Part shown: in pieces, positions 27,528 to 33,980 of the stretch
Layout of the letters: every line of letters starts with the position of its first letter
How positions within the stretch are numbered: position 1 is the first letter of the stretch
DNA from: Thermofilaceae archaeon
GTDB lineage: Archaea > Thermoproteota > Thermoprotei > Thermofilales > Thermofilaceae
Length of the DNA stretch: 64,000 bases
Assembly (NCBI GenBank): GCA_038861545.1
Contig: JAWCCZ010000003.1
Span: 96,001-160,000, forward strand
Direction: 5' to 3'
Notes under the pieces: generated by a model
What the model saw: the letters and a program-made list of their open reading frames with translations, nothing else
What the model was told of the DNA's origin: nothing
The model's database searches: none
Translations under genes and position numbers: made by a program

Positions 27528-28109
27528 TTATATTGTGCAGCCGGTAGGGCTAAGCGCTATGCGGAGAGCATCCAGTTCGTGGCGTGACAATTTTTTAAGT
27601 CTTGTGAAGTCGCCGATTACAACGTTTGCTTTAGCCTCCTCCTCATGCACAAGGTTTGCAGAGACTCTTAACTTGCGAATCGAGCCAGCCAATTCTTCGG
27701 CCAATTTGTAGCACGCCTTAGTATATCCTATTTTGCATTGAATGTCTTTTTTTAGTTTAATGAGTTCGGATATTAGTTCAATGGTTTTGTCGTTTTCTCT
27801 TACAATACTAGTGTAAGCCATAATGTCGTTTATCAGTATAACCATACCAATGTTTCTTGCCCCTACATCGATTCCTACCGTCATCTTAGTACTTCTTTCT
27901 AATTGATGTGCTAGCCAGCAAGCGAATAAAGCAACCTGGTGCTTAGAACGTAGTATTTCCTTAGGTACTTTTTTACCATTGTTACTAACCTCGATAAATG
28001 ATTCTAAACCAAGGTCCCTTATCGTTTGATAAAGTAGGTGAATAGAGCGTAGATCCGGCGCGCACAGAGCTACACGCCGCGTTCTCAGGGCTTGTTCCAA
28101 GCTTCGCAT
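27528..28109 (-). CDS. RNase H-fold (YqgF/RuvC-like) putative nuclease
   Basis: VGIDVGARNIG, LVHEE, HELDALRIA. Confidence 0.65.
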   Translation of the reverse strand: MRSLEQALRTRRVALCAPDLRSIHLLYQTIRDLGLESFIEVSNNGKKVPKEILRSKHQVALFACWLAHQLERSTKMTVGIDVGARNIGMVILINDIMAYTSIVRENDKTIELISELIKLKKDIQCKIGYTKACYKLAEELAGSIRKLRVSANLVHEEEAKANVVIGDFTRLKKLSRHELDALRIALSPTGCTI

Positions 28110-28711
28110 ACTTCAATCATTTTATTCAATTCTATCCTATTTCTGTCAAGGAGTATATTAGGGTCCGCTAATTCACGCTCCTCAAGTATAACCTCTTTCT
28201 TAACAACCTTCAGCCTTAATAGATAAGGCTTTAGAAGCCGAATATACCGCAGGCCGAGCGGTCCGCCGGTTCTCTGGTCTTCTCCGCATACAGTGATGAC
28301 TTTACCTGAGTTCTCAATTATGCTAGTGAATATCTGGATTTCAGTCAGTGCCATACGCATTATGTAGCTTTCCTTAAGAACTGCTCTGTAAGGAATTATA
28401 TTTGCCAAAAACTCATCTAACACGATAGTCCTACAATCACCTGCTCTCGTTTCCCCAAGCACCTCGAACACTTTGAGTAACTCGCTGTAGAAAGACATTG
28501 TCTGAAAAACTTTAGCCTCCTTTGGGAGTTTTTTCAGACGTGCATGTCTTCCGGTACCTATGTATAGAAATGGCCTAGAGTTATAGGCAATCAATAGGGC
28601 TAATCGTGTTCTTAATGAGCCCGGAGGCCCATAAATGACTAATCCTTTTTTCTCCTCTAAAATCCGTGTTAACAAGTAGAGTAAGTGTTCAGCCTCCGGT
28701 TTTTTGCGCAT
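28085..28711 (-). CDS. RecA/RadB-like P-loop protein with degenerate Walker A
   Basis: VIYGPPGSLRT, LYIGT, Walker B IVLDE, GPLG. Confidence 0.65.
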   Translation of the reverse strand: MRKKPEAEHLLYLLTRILEEKKGLVIYGPPGSLRTRLALLIAYNSRPFLYIGTGRHARLKKLPKEAKVFQTMSFYSELLKVFEVLGETRAGDCRTIVLDEFLANIIPYRAVLKESYIMRMALTEIQIFTSIIENSGKVITVCGEDQRTGGPLGLRYIRLLKPYLLRLKVVKKEVILEERELADPNILLDRNRIELNKMIEVCEAWNKP

Positions 28712-29063
28712 AAAGTACTATAACTAACAGTGAGCCGACAATTATTAAAACTAAACCGGTCGCAATCGAGAGCTTAGCCGTTTCGCTGCGGATTTTTCCA
28801 CTCCCGGTATACAGTAAGTAATAGCCAGCTACTACCATAAGGTAACCTACAAAGGATATTGTCAGCTCTATGAAGTTTTGGTAACTTCTACTTGCTACTG
28901 GTCCTATGATAGATGTCACTGCTATGAACTCTTCCGGGCTATGAATCATGGTATATAAAATGTTAAAAACCCCACATAGCAGGAATAAGCTGGCAGCAAT
29001 GATTAAAGGAGCTAAGATAATTGGATCCAGAATTTTTGTTATAAATCGCGGGATTTGAGACAT
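28689..29063 (-). CDS. 3-TM membrane protein resembling OSTC/DC2 (OST3/OST6 family)
   Basis: TM1 SLFLLCGV, loop ending YQNFIE, TM2 ending AGYYLL, TM3 ending K-x-GG. TATA at 29093-29086 favours ATG 29063; the ORF is open to 29075. Confidence 0.6.
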   Translation of the reverse strand: MSQIPRFITKILDPIILAPLIIAASLFLLCGVFNILYTMIHSPEEFIAVTSIIGPVASRSYQNFIELTISFVGYLMVVAGYYLLYTGSGKIRSETAKLSIATGLVLIIVGSLLVIVLYAQKTGG

Positions 29064-29161
29064 TATAGGCCTCATTTCTTTTACAGATATAAACTTTCGT
29101 TTACAATGACTTTTTGTTAGGTCTTTTCCCGACTTTTACGATAGGGTCTTCGTTTTCTCCA

Positions 29162-30019
29162 TTAAGCTGCTGTAGAAAAGGCTATTGTACCTAGAAGCAT
29201 TGCAAGAAGTGTAATTTTTCGACTGTTTTCAGCATGCCTTATGTCCTGCTTTAGTAGGATGTATATTGCTGTGAACGAAAATAACGTATCAGTGACGGAC
29301 ACGAGAGCGGTGTAAATCGCGCGTTTTCCTTGGTCATGAATCAATGGAAGTGCGATAAGGCTAAGCAAGATGGCGAATATGAACAAGACAGCTGCTAAAA
29401 AAGCCGCAAAACGCCGACCCTTAACAACAGCAATTGTTTTAATTCCAACCCGCTTGTCGCCCTCGAGATCTCTTATACCCTTTAACACTTCTCTACCTAA
29501 AGTAGCTACAAAAGCTATGAGTGTGAAAATAATAGCTAATAAAGGTATCTGGTAACCACTAGTAACGGTTGCTCCAAATAGGAAGGGTAGGGAAGTGTCA
29601 AGACTCACGACCAAGTTACCGATAAACCCCAATCGCTTGTAACGAACGTTGTATGCCATGCCGCTCGTTATAGCTGCCAGTACTACTACTAGTGGCATTA
29701 TTCCAAGGAATAAAGAGAGCGCGGTTCCGAGTAATAAAGTTAGATAGCCAGCCATGATTGCCTCCTTTAAGCTAATCTCGCCGGTAACTAATGGACGGTA
29801 CGGGGCATTTATTTTATCTTCATCAATATTGTAAATATCATTGAAAATGAAGAGGCCAGCCTCCACAAGTACTGTAATCACTATCGCTAGTACAGCTTGT
29901 ATAAGGGGTGTATACATCCATCCTCCCGCTCCAAGTGCACAGCCAGTTACTGCAGCTACTGAGGCTATAATGCCATGCTCAATCCGGGTGAGTTTGAAGT
30001 AAGCAGATACTTTGCCCAC
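29162..30019 (-). CDS. Digeranylgeranylglyceryl-phosphate synthase (UbiA family)
   Basis: NDIYNIDEDKINAPYRPLVTG, REVLKGIRDLEGD; many TMs. Confidence 0.88.
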   Translation of the reverse strand: MGKVSAYFKLTRIEHGIIASVAAVTGCALGAGGWMYTPLIQAVLAIVITVLVEAGLFIFNDIYNIDEDKINAPYRPLVTGEISLKEAIMAGYLTLLLGTALSLFLGIMPLVVVLAAITSGMAYNVRYKRLGFIGNLVVSLDTSLPFLFGATVTSGYQIPLLAIIFTLIAFVATLGREVLKGIRDLEGDKRVGIKTIAVVKGRRFAAFLAAVLFIFAILLSLIALPLIHDQGKRAIYTALVSVTDTLFSFTAIYILLKQDIRHAENSRKITLLAMLLGTIAFSTAA

Positions 30020-30064
30020 AGGGTATTCTCTAAAACCACTTTAAAACAGCTACTGCTAATTTAA

Positions 30065-30078
30065 CCGGTAAATTTAAG
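30065..30078 (+). promoter_or_regulatory. BRE/TATA promoter
   Basis: CCGGTAAATTTAA is identical to positions 1-13 and lies upstream of ATG 30110. Confidence 0.55.
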
Positions 30079-30109
30079 TGCTTCATTTGTAGAGAACCTA
30101 CAGGTTGCC

Positions 30110-30283
30110 ATGTACATAATTGCCTGTAACAAGTGCTCTCTAGTACTTTATGCCGGTGAGAAACCAATTGATGTGCTAAGGGTTCTTGTTAAGTATGGTG
30201 ATAAATGTCCTCGGTGTTTACACAAGTTTTCTCTGAAACCAAAGCAGATACGCGCTCATGCACGGTCCGTTAGGAACTACTAA
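30110..30283 (+). CDS. Small zinc-ribbon protein (57 aa; absent from the ORF track)
   Basis: MYIIACNKCSLVLY...YGDKCPRCLHKF...; CxxC-x23-CPxC; has its own promoter. Confidence 0.75.
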   Translation: MYIIACNKCSLVLYAGEKPIDVLRVLVKYGDKCPRCLHKFSLKPKQIRAHARSVRNY

Positions 30284-30338
30284 GCTCCCGCCTCATATCA
30301 ACTACAAATTTATTAATCGCTTTTCAAGGGTTCATCGG

Positions 30339-32516
30339 ATGAGCAGTCGAACTAAAGTAGTCAAGGATAAATTACTATCAGGAATTTTTCGGGCTTTAGC
30401 CTTACCAGCCGATAGTCGATTCATAGCAGCTGCAGTAGTTTCATTCAGCGTATTGTTATCACTGCTTATCCGGCTTGCTCCGCTACGATGGGGTGTGTAC
30501 TTAAACGAATTCGATCCGTACTACGAGTACTATTTAGCTGAGACTCTCCTACAGAAAGGTAATGGCGACCTTCTCAAAGGACTTGTCTGGTGGTTTAGCT
30601 GGTGGTTTGATCGAAGTGAACGGGATACCCTGTTCTGGGCTCCAGGAGGCAGAGATACGAGGGCCTCTAGCCAGTTAGGAGCTCCTCTATTTTCAGCTGT
30701 GACGTATACTCTACTAAAGGGTTTGGGCTTCGACATTGATCTCTACACAGTCCATGCCTTCATACCGGCTGTTGGAGCAGCGTTTACATGCATATTCGCT
30801 TACTTTTTAGCCAAGGAGTTATGGGATTCGAGTGCTGGAGTGCTATCCTCACTTTTTATGAGCTGTTGTTGGCCATTTATTTATAGAACCAACTTAGGAG
30901 CTAAGCATGAGGGTTTAGCTATACCTTTAATGTTAGCTTCTTTCACGCTTTTTATTCAAGCCCACAGAAGAGGGTCTATTATGCGGGGAATAGTATCAGG
31001 GATCCTTATGAGTTTAGTTGTTTTCTCTTGGGGTGGCTTCCTTTATCCTTGGAATCTACTAGCTCTAACTGTTTTAATTTGGTTACTGATTAATCCTGGC
31101 GATACCAGAACCGCAAAGGTTTACATACCATACTTTACTTTATCGAGTATCGCCATAGCACTACTACCAAGGTTCGGCCCCCGGATGGCTTATGCTTCAC
31201 CTGCAGCAATTGTACCTTTACTAACGATCGGAGCCTCTCTCCTCACGCATACTCACCTTTTACCCACCCTAGGCAGGACAAGAAGTGTAGATAGGAAAAC
31301 CACAGTTATAATTGCAACCTGTATAGGCGTGATTTTCTTTTTAGCCTGGTGGACCGGTGTTCTCGTTTCGCTTCCTGGTAGAATAATAGCGGTTATCATG
31401 CCTATTCTACGCGAAGTAGGTGTAACCACAGTAGCTGAACACGCCGTACCAACATGGGCCTCTATCTACGGCGATTACAGCTTACTTATACCATTTTCTG
31501 CTTTCGGTGCACTACTCAGCGGCTACAGGATGCGTAAACGCTTTGAGGATCTTTTTGCAGTTTTACTCTGGTCTTCGGCCGCCTATGCTGCTGCTTCTAT
31601 GGCTAGGTTAACTCTCTTATTAGGTCCAGCCGTAGCTCTTCTAACTGCTTCAGCATTCTCGGAACTTATAGGCAAACTAATAGCAGCTAGGATTACCAAT
31701 GTAAAAGCTCGGAAAAGAGCCGGGATCAGCGATGAACTAGTAGCATTAACCATCATTTTAGTTTCAGCCTTACTTTTAGTCCCCCTACTCAATTATACGG
31801 CTTTAACTGCAACTCATCAACCAGCGTTAATACTCAGCTCTTCAATCCCGGTTGTTGATTATAATTACCAATATACTGATTGGATTTCTGCACTCGAGTG
31901 GATTAAGGCGAACGTGCCTACTGGATCCGTTATCGCAACTTGGTGGGACTACGGTTACTGGATTTCTGTTAATACTCTGAGAAATACTACTTGTGATAAC
32001 GCGACAATCGATACCAACCAGATACAGAAAATAGCTAAGGCTTTTCTATCACCAGAGGAGGAAGCTCTTCGGATTTTTGAGGGGTTAAACGTTACATACG
32101 TAGTGGTTTTTGAACCTTTCCTATCCGCAACTTTACCCAACTTAGGCATTACAGTATATTATTCACCAGCAGGAAGCGCATACGGAGGAGACTTAGCCAA
32201 GAGCTACCAAATGGCCCGTTGGATTGGGGCCGATACAGAGAAGTACCTCGGGTTCGGATACGTTGACAGCTACCCCATTATAGTGCCGAAGGATAATGAT
32301 GAAGCTCGTAATGCTACACTTTATCGGCTACTTTTCTCTAGGGCTACTGGGAGGTACTTCTACATTTTTGATCAACAGCTATCTTACTGGATAAGCTACG
32401 AGGGTCCCCGCCCGACGATACCAGAGCCCGAGCACTTTGAACTTGTATTTGCTTCGTCACCTAACAGGTGGGTATTAGTATATAAGGTCATTTACCCTGA
32501 GCCGAAGACTCCCTAA
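30339..32516 (+). CDS. aglB: Oligosaccharyltransferase AglB (STT3)
   Basis: EFDPY, TVAEH, WWDYG, DNAT; multiple TMs. TATA at 30309-30316 supports ATG 30339. Confidence 0.95.
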   Translation: MSSRTKVVKDKLLSGIFRALALPADSRFIAAAVVSFSVLLSLLIRLAPLRWGVYLNEFDPYYEYYLAETLLQKGNGDLLKGLVWWFSWWFDRSERDTLFWAPGGRDTRASSQLGAPLFSAVTYTLLKGLGFDIDLYTVHAFIPAVGAAFTCIFAYFLAKELWDSSAGVLSSLFMSCCWPFIYRTNLGAKHEGLAIPLMLASFTLFIQAHRRGSIMRGIVSGILMSLVVFSWGGFLYPWNLLALTVLIWLLINPGDTRTAKVYIPYFTLSSIAIALLPRFGPRMAYASPAAIVPLLTIGASLLTHTHLLPTLGRTRSVDRKTTVIIATCIGVIFFLAWWTGVLVSLPGRIIAVIMPILREVGVTTVAEHAVPTWASIYGDYSLLIPFSAFGALLSGYRMRKRFEDLFAVLLWSSAAYAAASMARLTLLLGPAVALLTASAFSELIGKLIAARITNVKARKRAGISDELVALTIILVSALLLVPLLNYTALTATHQPALILSSSIPVVDYNYQYTDWISALEWIKANVPTGSVIATWWDYGYWISVNTLRNTTCDNATIDTNQIQKIAKAFLSPEEEALRIFEGLNVTYVVVFEPFLSATLPNLGITVYYSPAGSAYGGDLAKSYQMARWIGADTEKYLGFGYVDSYPIIVPKDNDEARNATLYRLLFSRATGRYFYIFDQQLSYWISYEGPRPTIPEPEHFELVFASSPNRWVLVYKVIYPEPKTP

Positions 32517-32673
32517 GTAGCTTCATAGCTCTCCTGTACTTGCCATACTTATCTTCTGGGGAAAATTTCGGTGGATGTGGTATCCGAATATTACCGCCAC
32601 AATGAGGGCACTTATCGGTTTTTAGCGTATATCTACCGCAATCTAAGCATTTTCTCAACAACCATCGACTCAT
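32488..32673 (-). CDS. nop10: H/ACA RNP protein Nop10
   Basis: CLDCGRYTL, CPHCG, HPPKFSPEDKYGKYRR. Confidence 0.96.
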   Translation of the reverse strand: MSRWLLRKCLDCGRYTLKTDKCPHCGGNIRIPHPPKFSPEDKYGKYRRAMKLLRESSAQGK

Positions 32674-32679
32674 AGTTGC

Positions 32680-33495
32680 CTAATCCCTCTGCTTTTCAAA
32701 ACTAGCTTGGCATCCCTCTTCCAATGCTTTCTGTAACAAAATTTTTTCTAATTCATTAATGAAATTCTCCAAGTGTTTGGGATCGAAAGCTTCAGCTTCT
32801 AATCTATACTTAGGAGACCCTTCAACATAGAATCGGGCTTTAATCTCAGGATGTTTTTCTTTTACCTCTTTCCATGCTGTAAGGATCGCTCGAAGCCTAT
32901 TAACACCGTCCCCTTTAGAGCACCTAACCGTGAATATGCATCTAACTTTAACCTTAGGTACTCTAACATAATTCTCTGCTAATTCCAAAAAAGTTGATAA
33001 CCAGGGCTCTTTCACACCGGCTTTTTCGAGAGCTTTTCTCCCTTCCCTGACAGCGGCTTCGAATCCTGTGAAGATTTCTCCGTAGGTTTTCTCCAGCTTT
33101 TCTGCTTCACGGGTTGCTTCGCTTAGTGATCCCCCCAGTTTCCTGGCCGCAAGCTCGAGTAATTTCGCAGCCCTCTGGGATCTCTTCCATTCTTGAAGCT
33201 TAGCTCTTCTTTCATTTTCAGCTACGCGTTTTAACGATACATCTACATGTTTTCTTTTAGGATCTATTCTAATAACTTTAAAAACTTTCTTTTGGCCAAT
33301 TTTCAAAACTTCTCTTATATTCTTAAACCAAGAATGAGATACTTCATTAAACGGTATATATGCTTCTAAACCCCCATACTCGTCCAGTGTAATGAATGCT
33401 CCATGATCCTCTATTTTCTTTACGGTACCGACCACTAGTTCAAAGAGCTTTGGAAGCTCATGTGTTGACAAACAACTCACCGCCATTAATTTCAA
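32680..33495 (-). CDS. eif2a: Translation initiation factor 2 alpha
   Basis: S1 domain GAFITLDEY...VDVSLKRV, GSPKYR; conserved L44e-S27e-IF2a-Nop10 order. Confidence 0.95.
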   Translation of the reverse strand: MKLMAVSCLSTHELPKLFELVVGTVKKIEDHGAFITLDEYGGLEAYIPFNEVSHSWFKNIREVLKIGQKKVFKVIRIDPKRKHVDVSLKRVAENERRAKLQEWKRSQRAAKLLELAARKLGGSLSEATREAEKLEKTYGEIFTGFEAAVREGRKALEKAGVKEPWLSTFLELAENYVRVPKVKVRCIFTVRCSKGDGVNRLRAILTAWKEVKEKHPEIKARFYVEGSPKYRLEAEAFDPKHLENFINELEKILLQKALEEGCQASFEKQRD

Positions 33496-33692
33496 TCAAG
33501 TGTTTTAAGCACTTCTCCCCCAATCGATGCTCTACCGCCTGTAGGTTTAACTAAAATACGACCACACATATGACACGAAACATTGTACGTCGCATGGGTA
33601 AATATAATCTGTTCGTTACCACAGTCAGGGCACCGTACTAAGATAAATTTGCTACGAGGAAATGGTACAAGTATTTTACCAAAGAGCGGCAT
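33492..33692 (-). CDS. rps27e: 30S ribosomal protein S27e
   Basis: PRSKF, CPDCGNEQ, CHMCG, PTGG. Confidence 0.96.
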   Translation of the reverse strand: MPLFGKILVPFPRSKFILVRCPDCGNEQIIFTHATYNVSCHMCGRILVKPTGGRASIGGEVLKTLD

Positions 33693-33980
33693 TTATGACA
33701 CCTTTTCAGCAAGCTCAAACTTTCTTAACCTACCAAGGGATTTATGCCGCATATAGCCACAAACGCTGCATTTTAGCCTGATTACCTGCTTTTTTGTAAC
33801 TTTGGCGAATTCCTTTTGTTCGGGTTTTCTCTTTGAACCATATCCTTCTTGTTTACGAAGGTATCTACGTTGACCAGCGGCAAGCGTTCTTCTCTTACCG
33901 GCTTTATATACCGATACTTGGTGTTTAGTATAGGCTTTGCAACGGGGACAGTACGATCTAACTTCCTTGGGAAATCTCAA
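33693..33980 (-). CDS. rpl44e: 50S ribosomal protein L44e (eL42)
   Basis: YCPRC, GQRRY, KVTKK, CSVCG. Confidence 0.96.

Follow-up and report, generated by a model that had tools for sequence, protein, structure and literature searches.

A strongly diverged OSTC/DC2-type membrane protein encoded beside aglB in a Thermofilaceae archaeon, a predicted partner of the archaeal oligosaccharyltransferase

N-glycosylation in archaea is generally attributed to AglB acting alone. Here we analyse a stretch of 64,000 nucleotides from a Thermofilaceae genome (contig JAWCCZ010000003.1, positions 96,001 to 160,000; hereafter the window), in which a small membrane protein is encoded close to aglB, the gene for the catalytic oligosaccharyltransferase (OST). 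The source assembly comprises 1.63 Mb and is 92% complete, and the relatives of the organism include Infirmifilum. Our reading, to which we assign a probability of roughly 0.7, is that the protein belongs to the OST3/OST6 family as a strongly diverged representative of the OSTC/DC2 type and packs on AglB as part of a two-subunit OST; its family membership is argued from profile searches, and its binding is a prediction only. The locus holds the following features, in window coordinates.

27528-28109, minus strand: RNase H-fold, RuvC/YqgF-like protein of 193 aa, here called Y (alignment and weak PDB matches).
28085-28711, minus strand: RecA/RadB-like P-loop protein of 208 aa, here called X (alignment and PDB profile matches).
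28689-29063, minus strand: OSTC/DC2-like membrane protein of 124 aa with three transmembrane (TM) segments (profile matches, TM prediction and an AlphaFold2 model).
29087-29093, minus strand: TATA-like box TTTATAT, read from the sequence, a putative promoter element.
29162-30019, minus strand: UbiA-family prenyltransferase, the upstream neighbour of the OSTC-like gene (Pfam UbiA, 1.8e-39).
30110-30283, plus strand: Zn-ribbon protein of 57 aa with the pattern CxxC...CPxC, here called ZnR, directly upstream of aglB.
30258-32516, plus strand: AglB/STT3 catalytic oligosaccharyltransferase (Pfam STT3, 7e-22, with AglB core domains).

The OSTC-like gene occupies a minus-strand open reading frame (ORF) at 28689-29075, whose upstream ATG at 29075 would give a 128-aa version, P0001. 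A second ATG at 29063 is the likelier, leaderless start and would yield a 124-aa product, because it lies 24 nt downstream of the TATA-like TTTATAT, compared with only 12 nt for the first; the public protein P0002, identical to the window protein, has 124 aa. The original prediction of a 124-aa protein with three TM segments at 28689-29063 is thus borne out by the ORF, the second ATG, the length of P0002, hydropathy and the AlphaFold2 model, and every motif it quoted (SLFLLCGVFNILY..P, SRSYQNFIE, AGYYLLY and AQKTGG) is present in the sequence. It was also right that only the UbiA prenyltransferase and a small Zn-ribbon gene stand between this gene and aglB, and its distance of about 1.3 kb to the aglB start agrees with what we measured from the ATG at 29063, namely 1195 nt to the start of the aglB ORF and 1276 nt to Met-28 at 30339. 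The first ATG of the aglB frame falls within the Zn-ribbon gene (an overlap of 26 nt), Met-28 lies just beyond the Zn-ribbon stop, and relatives align with AglB only from about residue 14-50; the start at 30258 is probably too early and Met-28 likelier.

Hydropathy places the three TM segments of the window protein at about residues 19-37, 71-89 and 102-120, and the AlphaFold2 model has helices at 18-45, 61-91 and 97-126 (predicted local distance difference test, pLDDT, 76; predicted template modelling score, pTM, 0.60). Both describe a short N-terminal helix followed by three long TM helices. Positive charges are concentrated in two places, the N-terminus and the loop between TM2 and TM3, a placement that suggests an N-in, C-out topology. 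The thioredoxin-like lumenal domain of Ost3, Ost6, TUSC3 and MagT1, which is N-terminal and carries a CxxC, is absent from the 124-128-aa protein, as is their fourth TM helix. Because it has no thioredoxin domain, the protein is of the OSTC/DC2 type, the membrane module alone, and not of the Ost3/Ost6/TUSC3/MagT1 type; for want of both elements, an oxidoreductase role is excluded.

The family assignment was not obtained by direct comparison. Searched alone, P0001 has no family match in Pfam (OST3_OST6, PF04756: E 1.2; 9 bits where the cut-off, a detection threshold and not a biological feature, is 27) and no match at all in NCBIfam, and phmmer against 1.8 billion representatives returned only seven close relatives. 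Word-index searches added few more, and the family was therefore widened through syntenic genes in the genomes of relatives. Thermofilaceae genes in the same slot after the UbiA gene, 20-25% identical, bridge the window protein to a large family, and it is in members outside the window's own clade that the likeness becomes measurable: they score 26.6-44.5 bits against Pfam OST3_OST6, eight of the nine matching proteins reach the cut-off, and their alignments span profile positions of about 170-288 of 294, which correspond to the last three TM helices. Across the wider family, 21 of 36 members match OST3_OST6 at E<=0.01, with a best value of 1e-13. The archaeal family profile, searched against all PDB sequences, placed OSTC first every time, at E-values of 0.08, 4.4e-4 and 1.9e-10 for alignments of 17, 26 and 36 sequences, respectively; the 36-sequence profile also recovered the TM region of MagT1 (residues 213-324) at 3.5e-8, the next unrelated PDB match standing at 0.03. 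The alignment with human OSTC is full-length, and the residues that are invariant or nearly so in the 36 archaeal members (G35, Q66, E70, G84 and K125) fall on identical OSTC residues: the TM1 Gly, the Q-x-x-x-E that starts TM2, the TM2 Gly and the C-terminal Lys. The three helices and the ordered conserved residues of the OST3/OST6/OSTC membrane module are all present in the window protein.

Structural comparison pointed to the same proteins with weaker statistics. In a Foldseek search with the AlphaFold2 model, the two best of 350,542 chains were both OSTC (6s7o_H and 8pn9_H; probability 0.95, TM-score 0.50-0.60, E 0.5). Comparison by VIA gave OSTC and MagT1 Z-scores of 8.6-8.9 at a root-mean-square deviation of 3.5-3.8 over 95 aligned residues, tied with unrelated helical bundles. 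The structural likeness to OSTC and MagT1 that had been anticipated thus appears as best matches of low statistical weight.

With such numbers one may ask whether the window protein is simply an unrelated small hydrophobic protein, matched to OSTC by chance or through the compositional similarity of three-helix membrane proteins. The absence of any significant family match for P0001 alone is what this explanation would expect, as are the Foldseek E-value of about 0.5 and the many unrelated helical bundles that reach a similar VIA Z-score. A leave-out control speaks against it, in which profiles built without the window's own clade were searched against the 13,853 six-frame ORFs of the genome. 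P0001 was the only significant match (E 2.6e-11, next best 0.15), and it was again the sole one when the profile was built from members of other classes only (E 2.9e-10, next best 0.049). In addition to being picked uniquely by these profiles at about 1e-10, P0001 shares its gene-block slot with relatives that pass the Pfam cut-off, and the family profile reaches OSTC and MagT1 at values far removed from the next PDB match. We regard a chance resemblance as very improbable. On these E-values the resemblance of the window protein to OSTC is more than chance, and the profile searches establish homology to OST3/OST6/OSTC for the family and, transitively, for the window protein, whose membership has to take this indirect route because its direct Pfam match fails. 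The likeness to OST3/OST6/DC2 profiles proposed in the original prediction accordingly holds by way of relatives and not for P0001 searched by itself.

A different assignment is offered by DUF308/HdeD-like small membrane hairpin repeats, which would place the protein outside OST3/OST6 altogether. The corresponding model (PF03729) matches 7 of 17 close relatives, and a 47%-identical relative (L004:1495-1857, plus strand) reaches 25.6 bits over TM2-TM3, against a cut-off of 25, and fails OST3_OST6. P0001 itself, however, scores 12.3 bits (E 0.21) against that cut-off, the match covers a single hairpin and not the whole protein, and across the wider family of 36, DUF308 is matched by only 3 members, compared with the 21 that match OST3_OST6. 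Of all the readings considered, this is the one to which we give the least credence. Given the DUF308 score of the L004 protein, automatic annotation of the window clade could mislead. By these profile comparisons, the OST3/OST6 family contains a clade whose divergence takes it out of reach of Pfam, and this clade has a TM1 insertion of three residues and an elongated first loop.

The position of the gene relative to aglB is conserved. AglB carries WWDYG and, in external loop 5 (EL5), TVAEH motifs that are invariant across 18 relatives, and aglB is single-copy in the genome. The OSTC-like gene lies no more than 2 kb from aglB in 13 of 17 Thermofilaceae genomes, which show two distinct arrangements, and UbiA, OSTC-like, RecA-like (X), RuvC-like (Y), Zn-ribbon and aglB form a conserved six-gene block in Thermofilaceae. 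All six genes are co-directional in seven other genomes of the family; in the window's genus and a sister genome the segment from UbiA to Y is inverted relative to ZnR-aglB, and in two complete genomes the OSTC-like gene is directly divergent from ZnR/aglB. Genomes G009 and G017 carry about 10 kb of inserted DNA between the UbiA-to-Y and ZnR-aglB blocks. Outside Thermofilaceae, linkage was scored across 60 loci, each about 20 kb long, that represent 28 families. The distance between aglB and the OSTC-like gene is at most 10 kb in 27 of them (18 of the 28 families) and at most 1 kb in nine (six families), and the layout is typically AglB(-) ZnR(-) / OSTC-like(+), often divergent. Chance proximity would be expected in about 1-2% per genome, in counts in which related genomes are not independent. 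The linkage in relatives for which the original prediction looked is therefore present, within the family and beyond it.

The genes between which the OSTC-like gene is embedded supply the most serious alternative, that the protein is a true OSTC homologue which does not serve AglB and works instead with the co-transcribed X and Y (for example as a membrane anchor) or alone. In the window the OSTC-like and X ORFs overlap by 23 nt and the X and Y ORFs by 25 nt, all three behind one TATA-like box. X and/or Y accompany the OSTC-like gene in all Thermofilaceae loci examined, and they lie within 10 kb of it in 33 of the 60 loci from other families. Outside Thermofilaceae, however, X is mostly on the opposite strand (OSTC+ X-), and the three genes are therefore not a conserved operon. 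X and Y also look like soluble nucleic-acid enzymes that have no known link to membranes. The best PDB profile matches of X are to RAD51D (1.4e-4) and RadB (5.5e-4), and its Walker A motif is GPPGSLRT, with Arg where more distant relatives keep Lys (GSFKT, GSYKT); Y has an invariant G-x-D-x-G and H-x-x-x-A in the alignment and weak PDB matches to the IscB RuvC domain, YqgF and RuvC (E 0.01-0.25). The residues that the archaeal family conserves are, moreover, those in common with OSTC, and the interface predicted with AglB is strong where controls give 0.00. We consider a role with X and Y, or a solitary one, unlikely.

The UbiA-family neighbour was tried as a further candidate for a functional link, which we dropped because its adjacency to the OSTC-like gene is confined to Thermofilaceae. 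It had been called a digeranylgeranylglyceryl phosphate (DGGGP) synthase; membership in the UbiA family stands, and in NCBIfam both the generic prenyltransferase and the DGGGP-synthase models match below their cut-offs, leaving the more specific name plausible. On the other side of aglB, genes for Nop10, eIF2-alpha, S27e and L44e (32488-33980, minus strand) follow in the window and in most relatives, and in Sulfolobus translational machinery has likewise been described downstream of aglB (PMC4287180). These translation genes represent old synteny and are a warning against reading function from neighbourhood alone.

We next consider the predicted complex. AglB (residues 28-752) was modelled together with the OSTC-like protein, with a separate alignment for each chain and three controls. 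The interaction prediction score from aligned errors (ipSAE) was 0.81, compared with 0.00 for the best control, a mark that 58 of 80 solved complexes reach, as do 2 of 110 mismatched pairs. Contacts agreed between runs to at least 89%, and the pLDDT of the OSTC-like partner was at least 81. In the model, all three helices of the OSTC-like protein contact AglB residues 382-505, the segment that follows the EL5 TVAEH motif and contains the final four hydrophobic helices, namely TM10-13 if counted on the 13-TM architecture of STT3. A predicted interface with AglB is what the original prediction had asked for, and the model places it at the STT3-DC2/Ost3 site. In yeast, Ost3 contacts TM helices 10, 11 and 13 of Stt3, and DC2 and MagT1 share that site (PMC7226087); this contact region corresponds to the one predicted here on AglB. 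The window protein probably sits on the AglB encoded 1.2 kb away.

Several considerations weigh against this reading and should be kept in view. The window protein by itself is invisible to Pfam and NCBIfam, the Foldseek E-value of 0.5 for the OSTC chains is not significant alone, and a de novo helical design reaches a VIA Z-score of 9.3, such that the values for OSTC and MagT1 lie below the level that discriminates helical bundles. X and/or Y lie near the OSTC-like gene as frequently as aglB does in other families, and the neighbourhood of aglB may be inherited synteny, since aglB keeps translation genes too. The complex model may have passed through memory of solved structures: complexes of STT3 with OSTC and with MagT1 are solved, and the pass is therefore taken as likeness and not as binding. 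We know of no archaeal AglB that has been experimentally shown with a partner. The archaeal OST has been described as a single-subunit enzyme (PMC8993221).

With these points weighed, we favour a mechanism in which the OSTC-like protein would insert in the membrane with its N-terminus in and C-terminus out, and its three helices would pack on the EL5 end and TM10-13 of the organism's sole AglB. The result would be a two-subunit OST, like DC2 on STT3A or Ost3/MagT1 on Stt3/STT3B. The small subunit may stabilise AglB, line the groove for the lipid-linked oligosaccharide and/or connect AglB with the SecYEG channel; the last two of these functions are suggested by analogy. DC2/KCP2 and Ost3 mediate docking of OST to the protein-conducting channel in eukaryotes (PMC5674889; PMC7226087).

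The enzyme was originally proposed to be multi-subunit and eukaryote-like, and of this the single accessory subunit remains. A six-frame Pfam search of the 92%-complete genome found no ribophorin I/Ost1, OST48/Wbp1, Ost5/TMEM258 or DAD1/Ost2 (PF04597, PF03345, PF05251 and PF02109), a search that very diverged subunits could escape, and Ost4 (PF10215) gave only a meaningless E of 0.72, where tiny or very diverged subunits could likewise escape. Because none of these was found, the evidence supports an enzyme of two subunits at the most and does not extend to a multi-subunit complex of the eukaryotic kind. Outside the window, a 211-aa frame at another locus (L013; contig C5:43140-43388, plus strand) matches PF04756 at E 0.0012 and 18 bits over positions 11-106 only, which make up the N-terminal, thioredoxin-like portion of the model, and its product is probably an ordinary thioredoxin-fold protein.

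Among characterised proteins the closest counterpart is human and metazoan OSTC (DC2; 6S7O chain H, 8PN9 chain H, 8B6L chain J and 6FTG), the STT3A-specific subunit of OST-A, with 149 aa compared with 124 in the window protein. Both have three TM helices and no soluble domain, OSTC is at once the best PDB sequence match of the family profile, over its full length, and the top Foldseek match of the window protein, and both dock, in our case by prediction, on the final TM helices of their catalytic partner. The C-terminus of the window protein would lie outside, like the lumenal C-tail of DC2 (PMC5674889). Identity is nevertheless only about 17-20%; the window clade carries the three-residue insertion in TM1 (GVFNILY against GG-IIY), and it has lost the PP after TM1 that other archaeal members keep. 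Neither KCP2 nor ribophorin or other OST subunits were found in the window genome, in contrast to the OSTC system. Yeast Ost3/Ost6 and human MagT1/TUSC3 (PF04756) are matched by the archaeal relatives above the gathering score over the last approximately 120 positions, and the MagT1 segment at residues 213-324 that the archaeal profile recovers has a VIA Z-score of 8.9 with the window model.

Closer in phylogeny, the Infirmifilum proteins P0020 (Infirmifilum sp. NZ, named 'OST3/OST6 family protein' by NCBI) and P0015 (IG193_03895 of I. lucidum, a hypothetical protein) are orthologues from the same family, encoded in the same UbiA - OSTC-like - X - Y - ZnR - aglB block. P0020 (33.8 bits) and L009, which is identical to P0015 (27.8 bits), pass PF04756 where P0001 fails, and the orthologues share only 22-25% identity with the window protein; the window's genus also differs from Infirmifilum in that its UbiA-to-Y block has the opposite orientation to ZnR-aglB.

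The family extends well past these genomes. We detected it in 134 of the 251 Thermoproteota genomes sampled, covering 64 of 109 genera, and members include proteins from Bathyarchaeia, Calditenuaceae and Nitrososphaerota; the expectation that homologues would come mainly from Asgard archaea and Bathyarchaeia was too narrow. Earlier accounts differ on this point. Lombard (2016) found no prokaryotic homologues of accessory OST subunits (PMC4973528), Ost1 and Ost3 have been cited for Asgard archaea (PMC10307638), and OST1 and OST3/6 are stated in passing to occur in eukaryotes, TACK and Asgard archaea (PMC11417166). The Asgard/TACK OST3/6 proteins and the window protein are homologous to one and the same eukaryotic subunit, and the window copy differs in belonging to Thermofilaceae, in being invisible to Pfam and in coming from a genome where no OST1/ribophorin was found. 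Our literature search returned no paper analysing the Thermoproteota members, the linkage to aglB, a complex or the Zn-ribbon neighbour. OST3/6 helpers in non-Asgard archaea have thus been mentioned before, and what is new here is the Pfam-invisible clade, the six-gene block and the Zn-ribbon lead.

ZnR represents a specific, single-copy family: a profile from members of other classes matches only the window ORF in the genome, at E 5e-9. Against Pfam, NCBIfam and the PDB it matched generic Zn ribbons and no specific family. Of the 251 sampled Thermoproteota genomes, 193 contain it, and it lies directly upstream of aglB, in either orientation, in all ten Thermofilaceae loci (L016-L025) checked by similarity; beyond Thermofilaceae, 29 of the 60 loci place it no more than 10 kb from the OSTC-like gene, often less than 250 nt away and divergent. 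We considered whether it is an obligate partner of the OSTC-like protein and rejected this, because the phyletic patterns of the two differ. In four families whose sampled genomes yielded no OSTC-like gene, ZnR occurs in 19 of 19, 9 of 9, 37 of 37 and 11 of 11 genomes; conversely, the sampled families f16, f19 and f34 have the OSTC-like gene, and no ZnR was found in them. We regard ZnR as a candidate AglB-associated cytoplasmic factor, and its conserved gene next to aglB and the OSTC-like gene is the freshest lead from this locus, and an unstudied one.

The gain from the window itself is modest, comprising a diverged clade, a conserved block and a Zn-ribbon protein flagged for attention. Its broader interest lies in the history of the enzyme. 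Accessory OST subunits are counted among the eukaryotic signature proteins traced to Asgard archaea; if our reading of the OSTC-like protein as an AglB subunit is true, the origin of the STT3-Ost3/DC2 subcomplex would move back to the ancestor that TACK and Asgard archaea share. One could go further and suppose that Thermoproteota AglB is the core of a module with the OSTC-like subunit and possibly ZnR, in which the OSTC-like protein couples AglB to SecYEG for co-translocational glycosylation. This extension is speculative and we think it doubtful, yet were it true, the coupling of OST to the translocon seen in eukaryotes would predate the Asgard-eukaryote lineage. Cultivable hyperthermophiles such as Thermofilum and Infirmifilum may, if the two-subunit reading holds, offer a minimal OST of this kind for purification and structure determination.

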